A stretch of 16,786 nucleotides of DNA from Candidatus Auribacterota bacterium. Lineage in GTDB: Bacteria > Auribacterota > UBA6266. The stretch covers positions 1-16,786 of the forward strand of contig JAGLRQ010000039.1 in NCBI GenBank assembly GCA_023136205.1, read 5' to 3'. Position 1 is the first letter of the stretch; each line of letters opens with the position of its first letter. This document shows positions 2,657-16,786 of the stretch, piece after piece. The notes beneath the pieces are model-generated. The model worked only from the letters and a program-made list of their open reading frames with translations. It was not told where the DNA came from and made no database searches. The position numbers were made by a program, and so were the translations under genes.

Positions 2657-3523
2657 ATGTTTGCAGGTTCTCTTGTAGCAATTGTTACCCCATTTAAAGA
2701 TGGGGAGGTGGATGAAGATTGTTTGAGAAGCCTGGTTCGAATGCATATCGAAGAAGGCACATCGGGTATAGTTCCCTGTGGGACAACCGGTGAATCTCCA
2801 ACACTCAACCCCGAAGAGCATAAAAAGGTTATTGAAATAGTTATAGATGAGGTAAAGAAGAAAGTGCCGGTAATCGCCGGAACAGGATCAAATAATACGG
2901 CAGAGGCAATAGAATATACCAGACATGCTTATGAAGCCGGTGCTGATGGCGCGCTTGTGATTACCCCTTACTATAACAAACCCACGCAGGAAGGATTATA
3001 CAGCCACTTCAAAGCAATTGCCGGAGAAGTTTCTATTCCGATAGTAATTTATAATGTTCCCGGCAGAACTGGAATTTCCATTGAGCCTGAAACCGTAGCG
3101 AGATTGTCGGAATTGAGCAATATAGTGGCGATAAAAGAAGCCAGTGGTAAAATGGATCAGGTTACTAAAATAATATCTCTGTGTGGAATAACTGTATTAT
3201 CCGGTGATGATTCAATGACAATGCCCATAATGGCTGTTGGCGGAACCGGTGTAATTTCTGTTGTGGCTAATATAGTTCCTTCTGATGTACGTGCTTTAAC
3301 GGCGGCAATGGAAGAAGGTAATTGTGAACGTGCTAGGGAGCTGCATTATAAGCTTTTTAACCTGTGTAAAGTTATGTTTATTGAGACAAATCCGATTCCG
3401 ATTAAAACAGCAATGGCTATGAAGGGGTTGATTAAAGAGGAATTCAGACTGCCGTTGGTAAGCCCTTCCGAAAAATCCAGGGCTATAATAAAAGCTCAGA
3501 TTGAAGAATACGGAATACTTTAA
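2657..3523 (+). CDS. dapA: 4-hydroxy-tetrahydrodipicolinate synthase
   Basis: GGAGG Shine-Dalgarno at 2647-2651. Motifs GTTGESPTL, YNVPGRTG and the Schiff-base lysine context AIKEASG. Confidence 0.95.
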   Translation: MFAGSLVAIVTPFKDGEVDEDCLRSLVRMHIEEGTSGIVPCGTTGESPTLNPEEHKKVIEIVIDEVKKKVPVIAGTGSNNTAEAIEYTRHAYEAGADGALVITPYYNKPTQEGLYSHFKAIAGEVSIPIVIYNVPGRTGISIEPETVARLSELSNIVAIKEASGKMDQVTKIISLCGITVLSGDDSMTMPIMAVGGTGVISVVANIVPSDVRALTAAMEEGNCERARELHYKLFNLCKVMFIETNPIPIKTAMAMKGLIKEEFRLPLVSPSEKSRAIIKAQIEEYGIL

Positions 3524-3546: not shown

Positions 3547-4353
3547 ATGATCAATATAGCTGTAAGCGGAGCCGCGGGAAGAATGGGAAAAAGAATCATA
3601 AATGTAATTCTTTCCCATACAGAAACGAAACTTGTTGGAGCCTGTGAAGCAAAAGGCCATGGCATGGTTGGCAGGGATGCGGGGGAAGTCGCGGGAGCTG
3701 GGCCCGCGGAAATAAAAATTGTGGATTCAATTAGTGAGATTTTGGAAAATGCCGATGTTCTCATAGATTTTTCCGCGAAAGAAGCTTCAATGAACAATAT
3801 TCAGGAGGCCTCCGAAAATAAGGTAGCTGTTGTAGTCGGGACAACCGGCCTTGCCGATGATGATCTTGAAAAACTTTCAATTTATGCTAAGGTAATTCCT
3901 CTTCTTATATCTTCAAATATGAGTGTTGGTATAAATCTTCTGCTCCAGTTTGTTGGAAAAGTAGGAGTTTTGCTCGGAAAGGAATATGATATCGAAATAA
4001 TAGAAACACATCATAAATTCAAAAAAGATGCGCCTTCAGGAACAGCCAAATCTCTTGCTGATACGATTAAAGATTCTTTAAGGGAAGAAAGTAATAGAAA
4101 AACCAATTTTGTTTATGGCCGGGAAGGAATGGTTGGTGAAAAACCTGAAAATGAAATTGGGGTTCACGCCGTTAGAACAGGTGATGTGATAGGAGAGCAT
4201 ACGGTGGTTTACTCAGGCGCCGGTGAAAGAATAGAGATTACTCATAAAGCGCACACAAGGGACACTTTTGCCAGAGGAGCTGTTCGGGCAGCCATATGGA
4301 TTAAGGATAAACCGGCAGGAGCTTATACGATGAAAGATGTACTTTTTGGCTGA
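3547..4353 (+). CDS. dapB: 4-hydroxy-tetrahydrodipicolinate reductase
   Basis: GAAGRMG dinucleotide-binding motif and EIIETHHKFKKDAPSGTA signature. I prefer the ATG at 3547 (MINIAVSGAAGRMG, GGGAG about 8 nt upstream) over the ORF-track start at 3532. Confidence 0.92.
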   Translation: MINIAVSGAAGRMGKRIINVILSHTETKLVGACEAKGHGMVGRDAGEVAGAGPAEIKIVDSISEILENADVLIDFSAKEASMNNIQEASENKVAVVVGTTGLADDDLEKLSIYAKVIPLLISSNMSVGINLLLQFVGKVGVLLGKEYDIEIIETHHKFKKDAPSGTAKSLADTIKDSLREESNRKTNFVYGREGMVGEKPENEIGVHAVRTGDVIGEHTVVYSGAGERIEITHKAHTRDTFARGAVRAAIWIKDKPAGAYTMKDVLFG

Positions 4354-9798: not shown

Positions 9799-10104
9799 CT
9801 AGTTAGATTTTTCCTTATTTAATTGCCAAAGCGAAGGATTGGTTTCTCTGCCAATATTATTAACTGTTGGTTCTGCGGAAGACAATTCAGTAATCTCCAA
9901 TTCTATTTCATTGCGTTTTAATACCCGGCCAAAATTAGCGTTGAATGACTTAGATGGCGGAGTGTTAGTGTTGTTGAAATATCCCCCCTGGTATTTTTGA
10001 AGCACCTCAGTTGTTGATACTTTGGTCAATCCTTCATTCCTAAAATCACCCAAAATTGTTTTGACTTTTTCAAGATTTACCAATATTATCTCGCTCATAG
10101 GCAC
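9799..10104 (-). CDS. hypothetical 101-aa protein (no recognisable domain)
   Basis: Open frame with a GTG start at 10104 preceded by GGGAGG (5 nt spacer). An in-frame ATG at 10098 is an alternative start. Convergent with nadB, with only 23 nt between the two stops. No motif I can name. Confidence 0.5.
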   Translation of the reverse strand: MPMSEIILVNLEKVKTILGDFRNEGLTKVSTTEVLQKYQGGYFNNTNTPPSKSFNANFGRVLKRNEIELEITELSSAEPTVNNIGRETNPSLWQLNKEKSN

Positions 10105-10260
10105 TTTTTCCTCCCGGTAACTCCACGGTTAATTAGGAACACTTCCACTTTTTTAAATCATACTATAATTATAATATTTCTCCTAATTTTTTATCTATTT
10201 TTTTTGTCCAATTTATTACAGTATCTAATATCTCGTGAATTGTAGGGGGTTAGAGCATGT

Positions 10261-11409
10261 TTATGGGGTGGAATCAAGAGGGATGAAAGGACGGCCGTCA
10301 CCAATTGTTTTTCTATTTACATAAAACATTTTTCCTAATTCAGTGTTGGTGAAATCAGTTATGTTTTTCCCATTAGCTTTCAGATATGCTTTAATCAGAA
10401 GAACGAACTTGGTGCTTTGGCCTTGGGCAGAAAGGAATGATGGTTCAAAAAACCCGCGTTTAAGAGAAAAAGTTTCACCTGAAATATCAATCAATTTTAT
10501 CTTTGCCGCCCGGGCATATTTAAATTGGACATCTATAAGTCCGTATCTACTTTTAAGCTTTCTTAAAGACTTTATCACTTGTCTGCGCAAAGCTGAAGCA
10601 TCCCAGTCTTGAGGGAAGTTTAATTGGCCCGCGAGCTTTTCAAGAGAAATATAGAATTCTTTTGATTTTCGGCGTTGGGACTCTGCTATGAGTAATAGAT
10701 AAAGATCCATCGCCCGGTTATCTCGTTTACTGAGCATTCCGGGAAAATAACGTTTGTTGTTCATCAGCGCCCCTGGCAGTTCAATCAGTTCAGGAAGCGG
10801 ATATATTTTCTTCAGGCTAATCTGCGCGGGCCCCCTTAAATCTTCTCCCTGAAGATGAATGGTTTTCATCCGCCGAAGGCGCTCTTTTGCCAGTACCGGG
10901 GAATCTATGAGAACTGATGATTCAAGGTTGCGAGTTAAAGCGCTTACGCTCCAGTTGGTACTGCCGATAACGACATAGCGGTTGTCAACTATAATCATCT
11001 TGTCATGAAGCATATATCGTGGATTAGCCAGGCAGATTCGACCGCCTTTTTGGCGCAATGTATCAAATATCTCTCCTTTGCCAACTTCGGTGAGATAACG
11101 GCTGCTCTTGTCTATTTTTGTGTTAAGGTATATATCAACACTCACGCCTCTTTCTAAGGCCTCTTCCAGGTCTTTCATCAAACGGTTGATGGTATGCCTG
11201 GCATCTGTGCCCGGTTTCATTATGAACATTGAGATTGTAATGGAGTCCCGGGCGTTATCTAAAAGATGTATAACAGCTTTTTCATAGGCTTGGTCGGATA
11301 TGTCCTTTATCCTCGCGGGATAGAGGCCTTCATCAGCCGCCTTCAGCGGAGCTGAAATAAGGCATAGCAGAAATAGGAAAAGAATGGTAAAGATTGTTTT
11401 TTTGCTCAT
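10261..11409 (-). CDS. exported single-HKD phospholipase D / Nuc-like nuclease-family protein with a C-terminal helix-rich (wHTH-like) extension
   Basis: N-terminus MSKKTIFTILFLFLLCLISAPLKA|ADEG looks like a signal peptide. One HxK(x4)D(x6)GSxN motif, HDKMIIVDNRYVVIGSTNW, at residues 135-153. About 200 extra C-terminal residues (RAMDLYLLLIAESQ...SLRKLKSRYGLIDV). Confidence 0.8.
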   Translation of the reverse strand: MSKKTIFTILFLFLLCLISAPLKAADEGLYPARIKDISDQAYEKAVIHLLDNARDSITISMFIMKPGTDARHTINRLMKDLEEALERGVSVDIYLNTKIDKSSRYLTEVGKGEIFDTLRQKGGRICLANPRYMLHDKMIIVDNRYVVIGSTNWSVSALTRNLESSVLIDSPVLAKERLRRMKTIHLQGEDLRGPAQISLKKIYPLPELIELPGALMNNKRYFPGMLSKRDNRAMDLYLLLIAESQRRKSKEFYISLEKLAGQLNFPQDWDASALRRQVIKSLRKLKSRYGLIDVQFKYARAAKIKLIDISGETFSLKRGFFEPSFLSAQGQSTKFVLLIKAYLKANGKNITDFTNTELGKMFYVNRKTIGDGRPFIPLDSTP

Positions 11410-11453
11410 AGTTAGACGCGGATGTACACTGATTTAAAATACAGATTCACACG

Positions 11454-11517
11454 GATAAAGAAAGAGTGGATACCATTAAAATCATCTTGATTTAACAGCA
11501 AAACCACTCTTTTTATC
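11454..11517. other. imperfect inverted repeat (16/14 nt arms, 34-nt loop): possible degenerate terminal attC or a terminator
   Basis: GATAAAGAAAGAGTGG (11454-11469) faces CCACTCTTTTTATC (11504-11517). A core-like GTTATAT lies at 11534-11540 and GTTAGAC at 11411-11417, but the two cores are direct rather than inverted. Confidence 0.3.
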
Positions 11518-11550
11518 ATTTTTTCATACCTTTGTTATATGCTTTTTCTG

Positions 11551-12132: not shown

Positions 12133-12236
12133 TAATAACGATAAAAATCAGTGGTGTTGCGCACACGTGGAAATCAAAAAAACTTGTTTTTTTGCGCCGA
12201 CGCTTATACAACATCCACTGGATTGTTTGGTTATAA
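12133..12236 (-). repeat. integron attC site, family A (104 bp)
   Basis: Plus strand reads TAATAAC...GTTATAA. Arms are AACgataaaaatCAGTGG-TGTTG and CAACA-t-CCACTGgattgtttgGTT. The spacer next to the cores is mismatched and T12214 is unpaired. About 85-90% identical by eye to the copies at 15198 and 15891. Confidence 0.85.
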
Positions 12237-12245
12237 GTTTGCCTA

Positions 12246-12476
12246 CTATTTTGCGATGGCTTCTCCTAACCGTTCCGCAACCCAAACTTTGATAATAGAC
12301 TGACGAGGAACCCCGAGGCGTTTGGCTTCTTTATCAAGCGAATGAACCATCCAAATAGGAAAATCGACATTTATTCTCTTTTGTTCCTGCTCCGGCCTTC
12401 TGGCTTTTGAGAGATCTAAATACTTCTTAATGTTTTTCCCTTCATTAAATTTTTTATCAAATTCTTTAGCTTTCAT
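12246..12476 (-). CDS. brnA: BrnA-type ribbon-helix-helix antitoxin
   Basis: 76 aa. The C-terminal half (INVDFPIWMVHSLDKEAKRLGVPRQSIIKVWVAERL) is RHH/BrnA-like. Overlaps brnT by 11 nt. Confidence 0.85.
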   Translation of the reverse strand: MKAKEFDKKFNEGKNIKKYLDLSKARRPEQEQKRINVDFPIWMVHSLDKEAKRLGVPRQSIIKVWVAERLGEAIAK

Positions 12477-12726
12477 ACATTTCCACCTCCTCTGGCCTAG
12501 AACGACGCACAGAGATAATTCTTAATTTTTCGTTACGATAAACAATAATTCCCGACCAACATTTTTCCTCAATCTTGCCAACAACCAAAAATCTTGGTTC
12601 ATCTACCGTCTTGGCAGGAATTTCAATTAAATCAGGATCATCCCATAATTTTTGGGCTTCAACAAAGCAAATCCCATGCTTTTTTTTATTGCGTTCACTT
12701 TTGTTTTTATCAAACTCAAAGTTCAT
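12466..12726 (-). CDS. brnT: BrnT-family (DUF497) ribonuclease toxin
   Basis: F-x-D-x-x-K-x-x-x-N-x-x-KHG-x-x-F-x-EA...RIISVRR, the typical BrnT pattern. The toxin-first gene order is typical of brnTA. Confidence 0.88.
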   Translation of the reverse strand: MNFEFDKNKSERNKKKHGICFVEAQKLWDDPDLIEIPAKTVDEPRFLVVGKIEEKCWSGIIVYRNEKLRIISVRRSRPEEVEMYES

Positions 12727-12735
12727 GATATAAAT

Positions 12736-12763
12736 AGTATACCATGTAGGTATAAATATGCAA
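12736..12763 (-). promoter_or_regulatory. candidate brnTA promoter with an overlapping inverted repeat
   Basis: Minus strand reads TTGCAT (12763-12758), a 16-nt spacer, then TATACT (12741-12736). Inverted repeat TATACC-n5-GGTATA at 12738-12754. Only about 9 nt separate the -10 from the ATG, and there is no Shine-Dalgarno. Confidence 0.4.
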
Positions 12764-12786
12764 CCTTTAAATAATGTGTATTTTAC

Positions 12787-12978
12787 TTATAACGTTAAAA
12801 ATCAGTGGTGTTGTGCATACGCAGAAATCAAAAATTTCTAATTTTTGCGCAAGCGCCTATTCAACAGCTTGCCCGCCCCGAGGAATTCGTAGAATTCCCG
12901 GGACTAAAGTCCTTGGAATCTTTCAGATTCCTGAGGGCCTATGCTTTGTGGCGGGTCCACTGAAGCGGGTTGTTAGAA
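12787..12978 (-). repeat. integron attC site, family A, interrupted by an 89-bp insertion (192 bp total)
   Basis: The left arm TTATAACgttaaaaatCAGTGGTGTTG is intact. The right arm is split: ...TATTCAACA | 89 bp | TCCACTGaagcgggttGTTAGAA. Confidence 0.8.
12867..12955. other. 89-bp self-complementary structured insertion inside an attC (unknown element or ncRNA)
   Basis: Closing stem CCCGCC (12872-12877) / GGCGGG (12950-12955). It encloses three hairpins: GGAATTC-gta-GAATTCC (12882-12898), GGAC-taaa-GTCC (12901-12912) and GGAATC-tttca-GATTCC (12915-12931). The other three family-A copies lack this segment. Confidence 0.7.
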
Positions 12979-12999
12979 ATTATTTCTTTTGCAATTTCT

Positions 13000-13656
13000 T
13001 TAACATGTTTGTTCTTCTTGTGTTGTTTTATCTGCTAACTTGAAACCCGCCATGCAGAAAACCACAAAACCCAGATATATTAGACCAAAGCTCATTGCAC
13101 TACCCCATAAAAGATATTTAAAGGAATAAAAATCCTTCAAAATATGCAGAGCAAAATATGGGAAAAATAACAACTTGATAACTACTGTGCTAAAGGCTAA
13201 TAACATCACCGGTATACTGTTTTGAAGGTTTTTAAATAAATAATTTAAACCAGCTTGAATAGTGGGCAGTCCTTTTCCGGTTAGATAAATAAGCGGGAAA
13301 ATATAAATAGATAAAACTACAATAATAGCCTGTAAGGAGAAATTAACTATCATATTCGGAATAAGATTGAAGAGACGTCCAAGGAAAAGAGGTAAAAACA
13401 AGATAAAACATACCACGATATAGTTTATCCAATTACGATTAAATATGTTTTTTGCAAGATCTTTCGGTGCCCCAGTTATTTGCTCAATAAAACGCCCATA
13501 TATAACTATTGAGATTGGAAATGTTACAATCAATTTCAACAATAAAAACAGAATACCTCCATCTTTTAGATTAATCGCTGAAATTATTGCTAACAGGAAT
13601 ACATAGAATGTTTTCTGATTTACAAGTTGAATTGATAACGAAAAATATTTTTTCAT
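13000..13656 (-). CDS. hypothetical integral membrane protein (about 6 TM segments)
   Basis: 218 aa, strongly hydrophobic and periodic. The ATG lies 11 nt downstream of the attC core at 13667-13673, and the stop is 22 nt before the next attC. Confidence 0.7.
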   Translation of the reverse strand: MKKYFSLSIQLVNQKTFYVFLLAIISAINLKDGGILFLLLKLIVTFPISIVIYGRFIEQITGAPKDLAKNIFNRNWINYIVVCFILFLPLFLGRLFNLIPNMIVNFSLQAIIVVLSIYIFPLIYLTGKGLPTIQAGLNYLFKNLQNSIPVMLLAFSTVVIKLLFFPYFALHILKDFYSFKYLLWGSAMSFGLIYLGFVVFCMAGFKLADKTTQEEQTC

Positions 13657-13666
13657 TTTCTACACT

Positions 13667-13753
13667 TTCTAACGCAAAAATCAGCGACGAGCCGTTAGGG
13701 TAGTATACGCGCGCCAGCGCGGATACCGCGTTCACGGCATTGCCTGGTTAGGA
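13667..13753 (-). repeat. integron attC site, atypical (87 bp; family-C-like stop-proximal arm, family-A-like distal arm)
   Basis: Plus strand reads TTCTAAC...GTTAGGA. Central stem GTATACGCGC-gcca-GCGCGGATAC shares the GCCAGCGCG core with the site at 16284. The left arm AACGcaAAAAATCAGcGacG resembles family A. The arms pair asymmetrically, leaving an unpaired bulge of about 13 nt. Confidence 0.65.
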
Positions 13754-14133: not shown

Positions 14134-14232
14134 TCCTAACGTCTTGTGTAACCAGCGTGGCGCATGCGGAGAATCAAACTATGTTTGTCACCAGAGCCGA
14201 AATTCCACGCCTGGTTAACGCTATTGTTAGGT
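14134..14232 (-). repeat. integron attC site, family B (99 bp)
   Basis: Plus strand reads TCCTAAC gtcttgtg TAACCAGCGTGG ... CCACGCcTGGTTA acgctatt GTTAGGT. One C (14210/14211) is unpaired. The left 27 nt match the partial site at 16759 at 24 of 27 positions. Confidence 0.85.
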
Positions 14233-15197: not shown

Positions 15198-15300
15198 AGC
15201 TAACGTTAAAAATCAGTGGTGTTGCACACACGAGAAAATCAAAAAATATTATTTTTTGCGCCAACGCTTATTCAACATCCACTGAATTGTCTTGTTCGAT
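15198..15300 (-). repeat. integron attC site, family A (103 bp)
   Basis: Plus strand reads AGCTAACgttaaaaatCAGTGGTGTTG...CAACA-t-CCACTGaattgtcttGTTCGAT, with T15278 unpaired. The upstream cassette ORF ends 30 nt inside this site (stop at 15268-15270). Confidence 0.85.
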
Positions 15301-15879
15301 GTTGTATTTGCTATTTATTGTTTTTAACCCTTTTGGTATTGTCGATATCTCTTCCCCTGGCAAATTGAGGAAGATGCCTGTTAGAGCACATTGAAAATCA
15401 TAATTTGACCTATGCACCGATATCCAAGGTTTTCGAGGGAGCTCTTTTCCCATTGCATCAGTAAAATAGTAGTACCATATACTGGTATCCTTACCAACCC
15501 TGTAGCCATAAAATTTCAAAAAGATTGTTTTGTTTTTAAACACTTCCAAATCTGGGCCAAACTCTCGTAGAAATGCTATGAGCGATTTGCCAAGAGTTTC
15601 ATTTTTTTCTACGTGACCAATTTCCTCAATCATTTTTTCCGTAAATCCTTGTTTGCAAAGAAATATTGAATATTGTGCTATATGATGAGGATTCTTTTTG
15701 TGTGGGTTTTCAAGACCGTCAACTTTCAAAACCTTGCCAAAGCAGAAAAAATCTGAATCCGGTAGAATTTCTTCTGCCATAAGGAAGATGGGTGACAAAA
15801 GAAAAAGAATTAAGAACGCAAAAGCTACAACTCCTATGCCATTACATAGAACCTTTCGACATTTAGCTTTAATTTTCAC
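15268..15879 (-). CDS. hypothetical exported or membrane-anchored protein (about 203 aa), unknown function
   Basis: This is the in-frame portion of the 324-aa track ORF that lies downstream of attC 15891-15994. The GTG at 15879 gives a signal/anchor-like N-terminus (KIKAKCRK-VLCNGIGVVAFAFLILFLLSPIFLMA-EE). An alternative ATG lies at 15780. The start is uncertain. Confidence 0.55.
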   Translation of the reverse strand: MKIKAKCRKVLCNGIGVVAFAFLILFLLSPIFLMAEEILPDSDFFCFGKVLKVDGLENPHKKNPHHIAQYSIFLCKQGFTEKMIEEIGHVEKNETLGKSLIAFLREFGPDLEVFKNKTIFLKFYGYRVGKDTSIWYYYFTDAMGKELPRKPWISVHRSNYDFQCALTGIFLNLPGEEISTIPKGLKTINSKYNIEQDNSVDVE

Positions 15880-15890
15880 TGTATTTTCCC

Positions 15891-15994
15891 ATCGAACGTT
15901 AAAAATCAGTGGTGTTGCGGACACGTAGAAATCAAAAAAACTTGTTTTTTTGCGCAGGCGCCTATTCAACATCCACTGGATTGCATTGTTATAT
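15891..15994 (-). repeat. integron attC site, family A (104 bp)
   Basis: Plus strand reads ATCGAACgttaaaaatCAGTGGTGTTG...CAACA-t-CCACTGgattgcattGTTATAT, with T15972 unpaired. It lies inside the 324-aa track ORF. Confidence 0.85.
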
Positions 15995-16059
15995 TTCCAG
16001 TTAATAGTTCGAAGCCAATCTGCCGATATTATAACACAAAAAGCTGAGGTATGAGTAAA

Positions 16060-16088
16060 ATTATAGCACCGGATTATACGCTGGACAA
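16060..16088 (-). promoter_or_regulatory. candidate sigma70-type promoter inside the ORF-less cassette, firing toward attC 15891-15994 and the next cassette
   Basis: Minus strand reads TTGTCC (16088-16083), a 17-nt spacer ending in TGC, then TATAAT (16065-16060), giving an extended -10 TGCTATAAT. A second TGTTATAAT is at 16028-16036 and a further TATAAT at 16071-16076. Confidence 0.4.
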
Positions 16089-16098
16089 AGTTAATCCG

Positions 16099-16199
16099 AA
16101 TGTTTTTCAACATTGCCGATAGTCCCAGATTCCGTACCAAGTACGGAATGACAAGGATAAGAAACATTTTTAAAAATGTCTTTCCTGCGAAGGCAGGAA
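16099..16199. repeat. cluster of four short palindromes/hairpins (REP-like) in the ORF-less cassette
   Basis: AATGTT-tttc-AACATT (16099-16114). ATTCCGTAC-caa-GTACGGAAT (16129-16149). A perfect 16-bp palindrome ACATTTTTAAAAATGT (16164-16179). TTCCTGC-gaag-GCAGGAA (16182-16199). The last translates to the IPAFAGK-type peptide often seen when palindromic repeats are mis-called as ORFs. Confidence 0.6.
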
Positions 16200-16283
16200 T
16201 CCAGGAGACAATTAGATATTTATAACCGGAACAAATTTTCAAAAAGGGAAGAATACTTCACTAAAGTCTTATTGGTTTTTAAA

Positions 16284-16377
16284 ATATAACGGTTGAACTA
16301 AGCCGCGTGTATACTACAACATAATCGCGAAGCGCCGCCAGCGCGTGTTCCACGTCGGCTTCAGTGATTTGTTAGGC
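16284..16377 (-). repeat. integron attC site, family C (94 bp)
   Basis: Plus strand reads ATATAAC ggttgaact AAGCCGCGTG ... CACGtCGGCTT cagtgattt GTTAGGC, with T16355 unpaired. The TAA stop of ORF 16372-16749 lies within the GCCTAAC core. Confidence 0.85.
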
Positions 16378-16758: not shown

Positions 16759-16786
16759 CGCCTAACGTCCTGCGTAACCAGCGTGG
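16759..16786 (-). repeat. integron attC site, family B, partial (cut by the window edge)
   Basis: GCCTAACGTCCTGCGTAACCAGCGTGG matches 14134-14160 at 24 of 27 positions. Confidence 0.75.

Follow-up and report, generated by a model that had tools for sequence, protein, structure and literature searches.

The attC sites of integron cassettes act as folded single strands, in which extrahelical bases steer the integrase. In canonical attC sites, the extrahelical bulges lie on the gene-proximal arm. The VCR attC has a second extrahelical base, G20'', that is contacted by the integrase in trans, and the spacing and identity of the extrahelical bases influence excision (PMC3053210). Two kinds of element are known to interrupt attC sites: IS1111-attC elements and group IIC-attC introns are autonomous, kilobase-sized, protein-coding and attC-specific, and insert near the attC 5' end (PMC3001079). 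Nesting of one hairpin-forming repeat in another has been described in T. roseum, where GTAG-23 REPs lie inside small palindromes of the form CCGSSCC(n3,4)GGSSCGG (PMC3733652). Here we analyse an 89-bp insert within an attC site of a Candidatus Auribacterota (Aureabacteria) metagenome-assembled genome (MAG), in a stretch of 16,786 nucleotides that is referred to below as the window. The insert is made of two nested parts, a GC hairpin shell of ~27 nt and a 62-nt core that occupies the shell loop. Literature searches turned up no description of the core repeat family, nor of an element of this kind within an attC.

In its behaviour the element resembles REP/REPIN repeats or miniature derivatives of IS200/IS605, yet it lacks the features that define REPs and MITEs. 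Like REPs and REPINs, the core repeat is short, extragenic, multi-copy, hairpin-forming and non-autonomous, occurs in either orientation, produces no target duplication and, as with the T. roseum GTAG-23 REPs (PMC3733652), is nested in other palindromes. It differs from them in having no conserved GTAG or CGTC tag (GTAG is confined to the window copy's variable loop, a position where others have GAA, AAA, GGA, etc.), in consisting of two direct bulged hairpins with a connector rather than a single palindrome or an inverted doublet, and in forming a family that spans several candidate phyla without a linked RAYT. Some of the hairpin scaffolds that host the core are themselves REPIN-like, such as the long hairpin of locus L055. 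Miniature elements derived from IS200/IS605 (PATEs) share with the core subterminal imperfect hairpins that have a bulged base near both ends, the absence of terminal inverted repeats and target duplication, and a single-stranded DNA logic. The two main hairpins of the core (hairpins A and 3) lie ≤5 nt from its ends with a one-base bulge each, as expected for IS200/IS605 subterminal hairpins. The core is much smaller than PATEs (62 nt), however, with hairpins nearly at its ends, no linked TnpA and no demonstrated conserved tetra- or pentanucleotide target. Resemblance to MITEs and to the Correia, ERIC, BOX and RUP elements lies in size (~60–150 bp), dispersal, structure and, as for BOX, modularity. 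The insert differs from MITEs in having neither a target-site duplication nor a known parent insertion sequence; its sole terminal inverted repeat is the 6-bp closing stem, and the combination of terminal inverted repeats with target duplication was not found. With IS1111-attC elements and group IIC-attC introns it has in common that an attC is interrupted at a defined position and that attC sequence or its stem-loop is exploited, but the insert is 89 bp long, non-coding and not attC-specific. A group IIC-attC intron (a ~2-kb ribozyme with domains I–VI and an RT ORF) had already been set aside in a first-pass annotation of this DNA, rightly so given the 89-bp length, the lack of an ORF and the lack of an Rfam group II match at E ≤ 10. 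An IS1111-attC element (~1.3–1.5 kb with a DEDD transposase) was rejected because the insert is 89 bp and non-coding.

An integron-type cassette array makes up the right half of the window (~11.5–16.8 kb), with its genes on the minus strand (Table 1). An integron integrase gene is absent from the window, where a 382-aa ORF at 10261–11409 is PLD-like instead; the array continues past the end of the window, and an integrase gene may follow there. The brnTA cassette is found behind at least five different upstream attCs, always with AAC joined directly to GTTATAAG; among them is a family-A-like attC of the same MAG that has no interruption (locus L143). A sigma-70 promoter that had been picked by eye upstream of brnT (TTGCAT-16-TATACT) was dropped after it failed a promoter scan.

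Table 1. Positions of the insert, its substructures, the host attC and neighbouring cassette features within the window.
Feature	Position	Strand	Description and basis
Insert (89 bp)	12867–12955	+	GC hairpin shell with nested 62-nt core; missing from three paralogous attCs and from the L139 orthologue
Shell, 5' half	12867–12877	+	Unpaired GCTTG, then closing-stem strand CCCGCC (12872–12877), which forms 6 bp with GGCGGG 12950–12955; common to L025 (CTTGCCCGCC)
Core (62 nt)	12876–12937	+	CCCCG...TGAGGG; covariance-model match, >45 homologues, covariation
Hairpin A	12877–12902	+	Base CCCG/CGGG, bulged A12881, 7-bp stem GGAATTC (12882–12888) with GAATTCC (12892–12898), loop GTA 12889–12891; alignment, covariation
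Connector mini-hairpin	12901–12912	+	GGAC-TAAA-GTCC, 4-bp stem GGAC (12901–12904) with GTCC (12909–12912); conserved as GGGAC-N3-4-GTCC, variants GGGAT...ATCCC
Hairpin 3	12911–12936	+	Base CCTT/GAGG, bulged T12932, 6–7-bp stem GGAATC(T) (12915–12921) with (A)GATTCC (12925–12931), loop TTC 12922–12924; covariation
Shell, 3' half	12938–12955	+	Loop remnant CCTATGCTTTGT (12938–12949), then strand GGCGGG (12950–12955); common to L140 (CCTATGCTTTGTGGCGGA), partly to L025
Family-A attC of the membrane-protein cassette	12787–12978	+	Aligns with three other family-A attCs; imperfect hairpin fold
attC R-box halves	12790–12793, 12972–12975	+	TAAC and GTTA; sequence
5' arm of attC L-box stem	12802–12813	+	TCAGTGG (12802–12808) and TGTTG (12809–12813), pairing with CCACTGA 12957–12963 and CAACA 12862–12866; single-stranded DNA folds of intact and in-silico excised copies
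CAACA, final attC bases 5' of the insertion	12862–12866	+	Alignment, fold
Bulged (extrahelical) T of the attC bottom strand	12956	+	Directly 3' of the insert; unpaired in 4/4 folds
CCACTGA, 3' arm of lower L-box stem	12957–12963	+	Fold with the insert keeps its pairing to TCAGTGG
Gene for 218-aa predicted membrane protein	13000–13656	-	Cassette that owns the interrupted attC
brnT/brnA toxin-antitoxin cassette	12246–12726	-	Pfam BrnT_toxin and CopG_antitoxin; downstream of the interrupted attC
Intact family-A attC, paralogous empty site	12137–12235	+	Alignment, single-stranded DNA fold
Intact family-A attC, paralogous empty site	15201–15299	+	Alignment, single-stranded DNA fold
Intact family-A attC, paralogous empty site	15895–15993	+	Alignment, single-stranded DNA fold

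The host site has the inverted R''/R' core sites of an integron attC (RYYYAAC, GTTRRRY) with cassette junctions between G and TT, and folding predicts an imperfect hairpin for its bottom strand, in which the extrahelical bases belong to the gene-proximal arm. In a MAFFT alignment, the four family-A attCs of the window are colinear on both sides, and only the copy at 12787–12978 has 89 extra bases, which fall between ...TATTCAACA and T-CCACTG. Alignment and direct reading reveal no target-site duplication; the insert is flanked by CAACA on its left and by TCCACTG on its right. Single-stranded DNA folding pairs TCAGTGG-TGTTG with CAACA, a bulged T and CCACTGA in the three intact copies and in the copy from which the insert was excised in silico. 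The insert abuts the bulged T12956, because the excised and intact folds leave this T single and unpaired. The cassette genes are on the minus strand, so the plus strand is the attC bottom (recombinogenic) strand and the bulge is on the gene-proximal arm. A second bulge (G) occurs 6 nt closer to the R box in the predicted folds of two of the four family-A copies, and T12956 thus matches by position the second extrahelical base (G20'' of VCR). The first-pass annotation had placed an 89-bp insertion exactly at the extrahelical T, with no target-site duplication and no terminal inverted repeat past the closing stem. Both statements agree with the alignment, the folds, the flanking sequences and the empty orthologous site described below. 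It had also suggested that the attC stem could close around the insert, which applies to the lower stem: in the predicted fold with the insert, CAGTGG/CCACTG still closes, and the 5-bp TGTTG/CAACA stem is lost because GCTTGC of the insert (12867–12872) pairs with GCAAGC of the attC (12849–12854). A bulky branch at the point where the integrase contacts the second extrahelical base makes impairment of the site plausible. The insert may therefore weaken recombination at this attC, and co-inheritance of the membrane-protein and brnTA cassettes through an impaired attC is likewise plausible.

The insert has 55% G+C compared with 36% across the cassette array. Folded as DNA it has a z-score of −4.3, its complement folded as RNA has one of −4.2, and ≤1/200 shuffled sequences fold as well, in line with the earlier reading that it folds on itself. 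The closing GC stem and the hairpin stems of 7, 4 and 6 bp recognized in that reading were all located at the same positions. In the shell, the layout is GCTTG-CCCGCC...CCTATGCTTTGT-GGCGGG; the final one or two C of its 5' half can be assigned to shell or core. Two hairpins joined by GGAC-N4-GTCC form the core; in each of them a 4-bp base is followed by a bulge of one base and an upper stem of 6–10 bp. The connector mini-hairpin overlaps the bases of hairpins A and 3, and T12914 and G12933 form a wobble pair in the base of hairpin 3. ARAGORN detected no tRNA-like cloverleaf in the insert. Rfam 15 gave no match at E ≤ 10 on 12700–13100 and none at gathering score across the whole window, and no further insert copies with ≤3 mismatches occur in the window. 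The insert contains no ORF, and its six-frame translation matched no proteins in the protein database.

Covariation supports the core structure. In an alignment of 34 core sequences, 97.6% of cells are paired under the structure of two bulged hairpins plus connector, and compensatory changes occur at 11 pairs; the covariation score was reached by 0/500 shuffles, and the signal collapses when pair partners are slid by one column. Compensatory changes affect 7/11 pairs of hairpin 3 across the 34 sequences. Hairpin A looks invariant because the search pattern required it (an ascertainment bias), and compensatory variants of it exist at L129 (GAAAATC/GATTTTC) and L115 (GAAATTC/GAATTTC). The covariance model matches 12875–12937 with 80.1 bits (E = 1e-17) on the plus strand and with 61 bits on the minus strand; since both strands score well, the core is pseudo-symmetric. 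A four-way junction, with the 5' CCC of the core paired to its 3' GGG, was also considered. At the invariant G/C runs it is not separable from three hairpins in a row, and covariation at columns 40–76 and 41–75 favours the three hairpins in a row for hairpin 3.

Sister-strain contigs, reached via cluster members of the membrane protein, carry empty and alternative alleles of the same site. Contig L139 is 98.9% identical to the window over 1185 nt, and its attC is uninterrupted, with CAGTGGA followed directly by TGTTG (...GCAGTGGA^TGTTGTATAAGCGC..., where the caret marks the insertion point). Several further bases also distinguish this empty attC from that of the window, and it should be read as a diverged allele and not as a clean pre-insertion state. 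Contig L140 is 99.1% identical and carries the attC sequence of the window. At the same attC point it continues as TCCGCCACAAAGCATAGGCG-CCTGCCTGCCGGTAGGCAGG and then ends, with the left half beyond the contig. It has the final 19 nt of the insert in common with the window, followed by a 20-nt GC palindrome in place of the window's hairpins. The site is nested: the attC holds the shell, and the shell holds the core in the window allele or the palindrome in the L140 allele. The shell tail is common to both alleles, so a single insertion event is their probable origin.

At least three unrelated hairpin scaffolds have the core at their tip, and two of them exist without it as well. Without its core, L096 reads CCTGCCTG^CCGGCAGGCAGG, a perfect 20-nt palindrome, and L129 reads CCTGCCGG^TAGGCAGG, which is identical to the core-less L142:2338-2353. 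The 20-nt palindrome also occurs core-less in identical form, as CCTGCCTACCGGCAGGCAGG, at L092:3263 and at L142:1287, and its complement is found at the end of L140. Removal of the core from the window leaves a hairpin of ~27 nt, GCTTGCCCG(CC)^CCTATGCTTTGTGGCGGG, that resembles the TGCCCGCC-N8-9-GTGGCGGG hairpins in L072. The long hairpin repeat of L055 is present both in a core-less form with a plain 9-nt loop (~4190–4270) and with the core at its tip (3235–3414). L096 and L113, from one MAG, have near-identical cores with differing flanks, and at L025 shell and core recur together at a site that is not an attC. TCAAC precedes both shell copies (window and L025); other copies have no common preceding motif. 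Across 41 cores, flank complementarity is −16.1 kcal/mol, compared with −11.1 kcal/mol for mismatched flanks (P = 7e-5), and ~40% of these cores have no obvious host hairpin around them. The core-less hairpins could be deletion products instead of empty targets. Core placement recurs at positions predicted to be unpaired (loop centres, a loop edge and an attC bulge), and the evidence points to a broader preference of the repeats for unpaired positions of DNA hairpins, including loops and bulges.

The core belongs to a dispersed repeat family. An exact-pattern scan with hairpin A and four flanking bases (18 bases) of one genome per GTDB species returned at least 118 loci, at least 44 of them with the full downstream architecture, which can be written CCCC-G-A-[GGAATTC-N3-GAATTCC]-CGGGAC-N3-4-GTCC-YY-[variable hairpin]-N-RRGGG. 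More than 45 copies are present in MAGs labelled Omnitrophota, NPL-UPA2, Ratteibacteria, Planctomycetia, Nitrospirota/Thermodesulfovibrionia, Spirochaetes and unclassified bacteria; among the matches listed, Omnitrophota account for most of the MAGs with the core. A unique 89-mer free of covariation, which the first-pass annotation had named as a refuting outcome, is contradicted by these homologues and by the 11 compensatory pairs. Among the matches listed for the exact 18-base pattern, MAGs have at least 2–5 core copies each, all extragenic. The closest relatives of the window core among the matches listed are L025, L096, L113 and L129, which differ from it by 1–3 bases, a count that excludes the covaried hairpin A of L129. 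The host genome has one core copy in ~38 kb of reachable sequence, and the ~10 kb beyond the window contains no other. A metagenome scan with the shell and hairpin A pattern gave no matches and a second one returned a single locus, L129, with its covaried hairpin A. Two patterns found no matches in IMG/VR viral contigs, and BLAST of the 89-mer against plasmids and phages retrieved chance fragments only (E ≥ 0.8). Next to copies of the core lie tRNA genes, an rRNA operon and genes with housekeeping functions. The proteins encoded nearest to the copies, 76 in number, are housekeeping proteins and include no enriched family and no transposase.

Such a conserved, intergenically dispersed structure might function as a structured RNA (as a terminator, a small RNA or a 3' module that stabilises mRNA, for instance) that has been copied between genes and serves cassette transcripts; the first-pass annotation had proposed a structured RNA in the cassette 3' UTR. 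The strong covariation support for the fold is compatible with this, and most copies lie 30–150 nt downstream of a gene, between co-directional genes. One copy is ~80 nt past a 5S rRNA gene, others are beside tRNA genes, and a simple scan finds one terminator-like site within the insert. However, the 29/32 copies that lie between co-directional genes take both orientations relative to transcription (17 versus 12). Mismatches are balanced between G:T (14) and A:C (9), and the reverse complement fits the model nearly equally well. Conservation affects stems and not loops, and Rfam has no match for the insert even with the threshold set to E ≤ 10; in 18 related loci the elements gave none at gathering score, where the other matches are tRNA and rRNA genes. 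The core is, moreover, nested in DNA palindromes that differ in its presence or absence. An RNA function of this kind is therefore unlikely to be what explains the insert, and no evidence was found for a strand-specific RNA in the 3' UTR.

A second possibility is that no dedicated enzyme is involved, and that, after replication had stalled at the hairpin-prone attC, a stretch of DNA rich in hairpins was brought into its bulge from elsewhere by template switching or gene conversion. The absence of a target duplication and of a linked transposase would be expected, host site and insert are both strong hairpin formers, and GCTTGC of the insert is complementary to GCAAGC of the attC, with which it pairs in the predicted fold. 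On the other hand, the same 62-nt borders recur at many unrelated places, in different phyla and on different scaffolds, and repeated errors are unlikely to be so precise. Junctions between donor and recipient also have no clear microhomology. We consider replication error quite improbable as the source of the insert.

The exact position at the bulged T, together with the window and L140 alleles that are both filled at the same attC point, could alternatively indicate a parasite or regulator that is specialised for attC and recognises the folded site with its extrahelical base. This agrees poorly with the distribution of the repeat. None of the ~45 other inspected copies has an attC or cassette context, and no attC-like repeats were found near L025, the closest relative among the matches listed. 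Three other family-A attCs in the window and the family-A-like attC of L143 are uninterrupted, and the window and L140 alleles, with their common shell tail, probably record one event and not two. The core repeat is not attC-specific, and specialisation of the insert for attC is very unlikely. Of the earlier suggestion that a tiny mobile or structured element targets attC, the mobile or structured nature is upheld by homologues, covariation and empty and filled alleles, and the attC specificity is not. Lastly, an assembly artefact or the ordinary variable-loop sequence of a long attC can practically be dismissed: several contigs do end in or beside the insert, as they do at repeats, but 10 contigs, which come from several samples and were assembled by three sources (ENA, Logan and two NCBI MAGs), contain the insert in identical form, and it lies between the conserved CAACA and TCCACTG in the alignment and not in the variable terminal loop.

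With its exact borders, its membership of a dispersed family, its empty/filled polymorphism and its nesting in hairpins, the insertion is best explained as a nested pair of small, non-autonomous, hairpin-forming REP/MITE-like mobile repeats that favour unpaired positions of hairpins, and we regard this as probable. Such modules would move as single-stranded DNA and integrate at unpaired positions of folded DNA. Their mobilisation may depend on a trans-acting enzyme that recognises hairpins with a bulge, for which a RAYT or an IS200/IS605-type HUH transposase would be a model; as no transposase or other enzyme is linked to the family, this model is drawn by analogy. The attC would have been hit because its folded bottom strand exposes an unpaired extrahelical T. 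Self-folding of the insert would leave the lower stem of the attC able to form, and the branch at the integrase contact would probably weaken recombination. More tentatively, the core, perhaps with the shell and the 20-nt palindrome, might represent a new class of ultra-small mobile DNA that chooses its targets by structure, integrates at unpaired nucleotides such as the apical loops and bulges of single-stranded DNA hairpins, and is driven by a hairpin-recognising enzyme, which is possible rather than probable. On this reading, the landing on an extrahelical base of an attC would follow directly from the natural folding of attC sites as single strands.

The insert exposes, in poorly known phyla (Omnitrophota, Auribacterota and their neighbours), a repeat family that is absent from Rfam 15. 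Such repeats cause breaks in metagenome assemblies and may wrongly be taken for genes or RNAs. A natural attC with a self-folding branch, for which empty and differently filled alleles exist, is a ready test of how much structural load an attC tolerates, and the same set of alleles also tests whether such insertions fuse cassettes. If the more tentative reading, a new class of ultra-small mobile DNA, is true, it would link two single-strand DNA recombination systems and provide a natural way to fuse or freeze cassettes. If integration is directed by structure, the core would be among the smallest mobile units known and could lead to a new hairpin-recognising enzyme.

At its unpaired 5' end, the insert reads GCTTGC (window 12867-12872), the complement of GCAAGC (12849-12854), which lies 12 nt upstream in the variable region of the same attC; in the predicted fold, this pairing takes the place of the TGTTG/CAACA stem. 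Contig L055 has a long, REPIN-like hairpin repeat with an outer stem CCCCGCC/GGCGGGG, an inner stem N5AAAATT/AATTTTN5 and a 3' tail TAAATT. This repeat occurs in two states: one copy has a plain 9-nt loop, and the other carries the core, the 62-nt dispersed module of the insert, at its tip. Core-bearing relatives of the repeat are found in nine other contigs (L011, L039, L068, L078, L082, L088, L094, L109 and L124). Within the core, hairpin 3 has been exchanged for a longer unrelated palindrome, GCCCCAACGCTTTGC...GCAAAGCGAAGCAGTGGGGGC, in two of four otherwise near-identical copies (L047 and L070, compared with L038 and L108), all from one NPL-UPA2 MAG; this replacement is a further case of module swapping or nesting. 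Core copies also lie beside RNA genes: one, at the end of an rRNA operon, follows the 5S rRNA gene at a distance of ~80 nt (L094), and tRNA genes adjoin the core in L025 and L096.

A second dispersed repeat is a GC palindrome of 16-20 nt, CCTGCCTRCCGGYAGGCAGG. It has the same sequence across unrelated contigs, those of Omnitrophota and carriers of Auribacterota-type cassettes (brnTA, membrane protein), and it also hosts the 62-nt core. In contig L142, a degenerate IS110-family transposase is flanked by two copies of this palindrome (1287 and 2338), one of which is 12 nt upstream of the transposase start codon; its N-terminal fragment has a GIDLH motif and its C-terminal part corresponds to PF02371. 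REPs and attCs are known targets of IS110/IS1111 elements.

The array end in the window contains a PLD-like gene and a 101-aa ORF, followed by the housekeeping genes nadB, panBCD and dapAB; no integrase lies within the window. A weak inverted repeat there, AGAGTGG...CCACTCT, may be a decayed last attC. Beyond family A, the window has at least two attC families with two occurrences each, and attC types form a mosaic along the array. A 324-aa ORF from a mechanical ORF listing spans a family-A attC (15895-15993) end to end; at its position in sister contigs, gene callers give shorter genes (170-299 aa), and the 170-aa call, at least, ends before the attC. The 324-aa ORF is probably spurious.

Coordinates of repeats, genes and attC sites in the window and in compared contigs (L-numbers)
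Feature	Location	Strand
Long hairpin repeat, plain loop	L055:4163-4302	
Long hairpin repeat, core at tip	L055:3235-3414	
Core copies, hairpin 3 replaced	L047:6881-6964; L070:69-133	
Core copy near 5S rRNA gene	L094:5833-5900	
GC palindrome copies	L092:3263-3282; L142:1287-1306; L142:2338-2353; L140:1360-1379	
GC palindrome variants	L082:6803-6822; L129:5517-5536	
IS110-family transposase, degenerate	L142:1651-2326	-
N-terminal fragment	L142:2162-2326	
C-terminal part	L142:1651-2121	
Array end	window 9799-11540	
PLD-like gene	window 10261-11409	-
Weak inverted repeat	window ~11467-11512	
First non-A attC family	window 13664-13752; 16290-16375	
Second non-A attC family	window 14135-14232; 16761-16786	
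324-aa ORF	window 15268-16242	-
brnTA cassette	window 12246-12726	-
Locus of the membrane-protein gene variant	L137:318-1199	

A variant of the membrane-protein gene (214 aa, 98% nucleotide identity) occurs in contig L137 of GCA_023143585.1, a MAG whose Pacearchaeota (archaeal) label is probably a binning error. Its 3' end differs, it has ~95 additional non-coding bases and an attC from another family, and different cassettes follow it. The brnTA toxin-antitoxin cassette, also present in L141, L142, L143 and L145, carries a conserved leader of ~70 nt. In different samples, it follows at least five distinct attCs, and its junction is invariably AAC|GTTATAAG, which marks brnTA as a highly mobile cassette.
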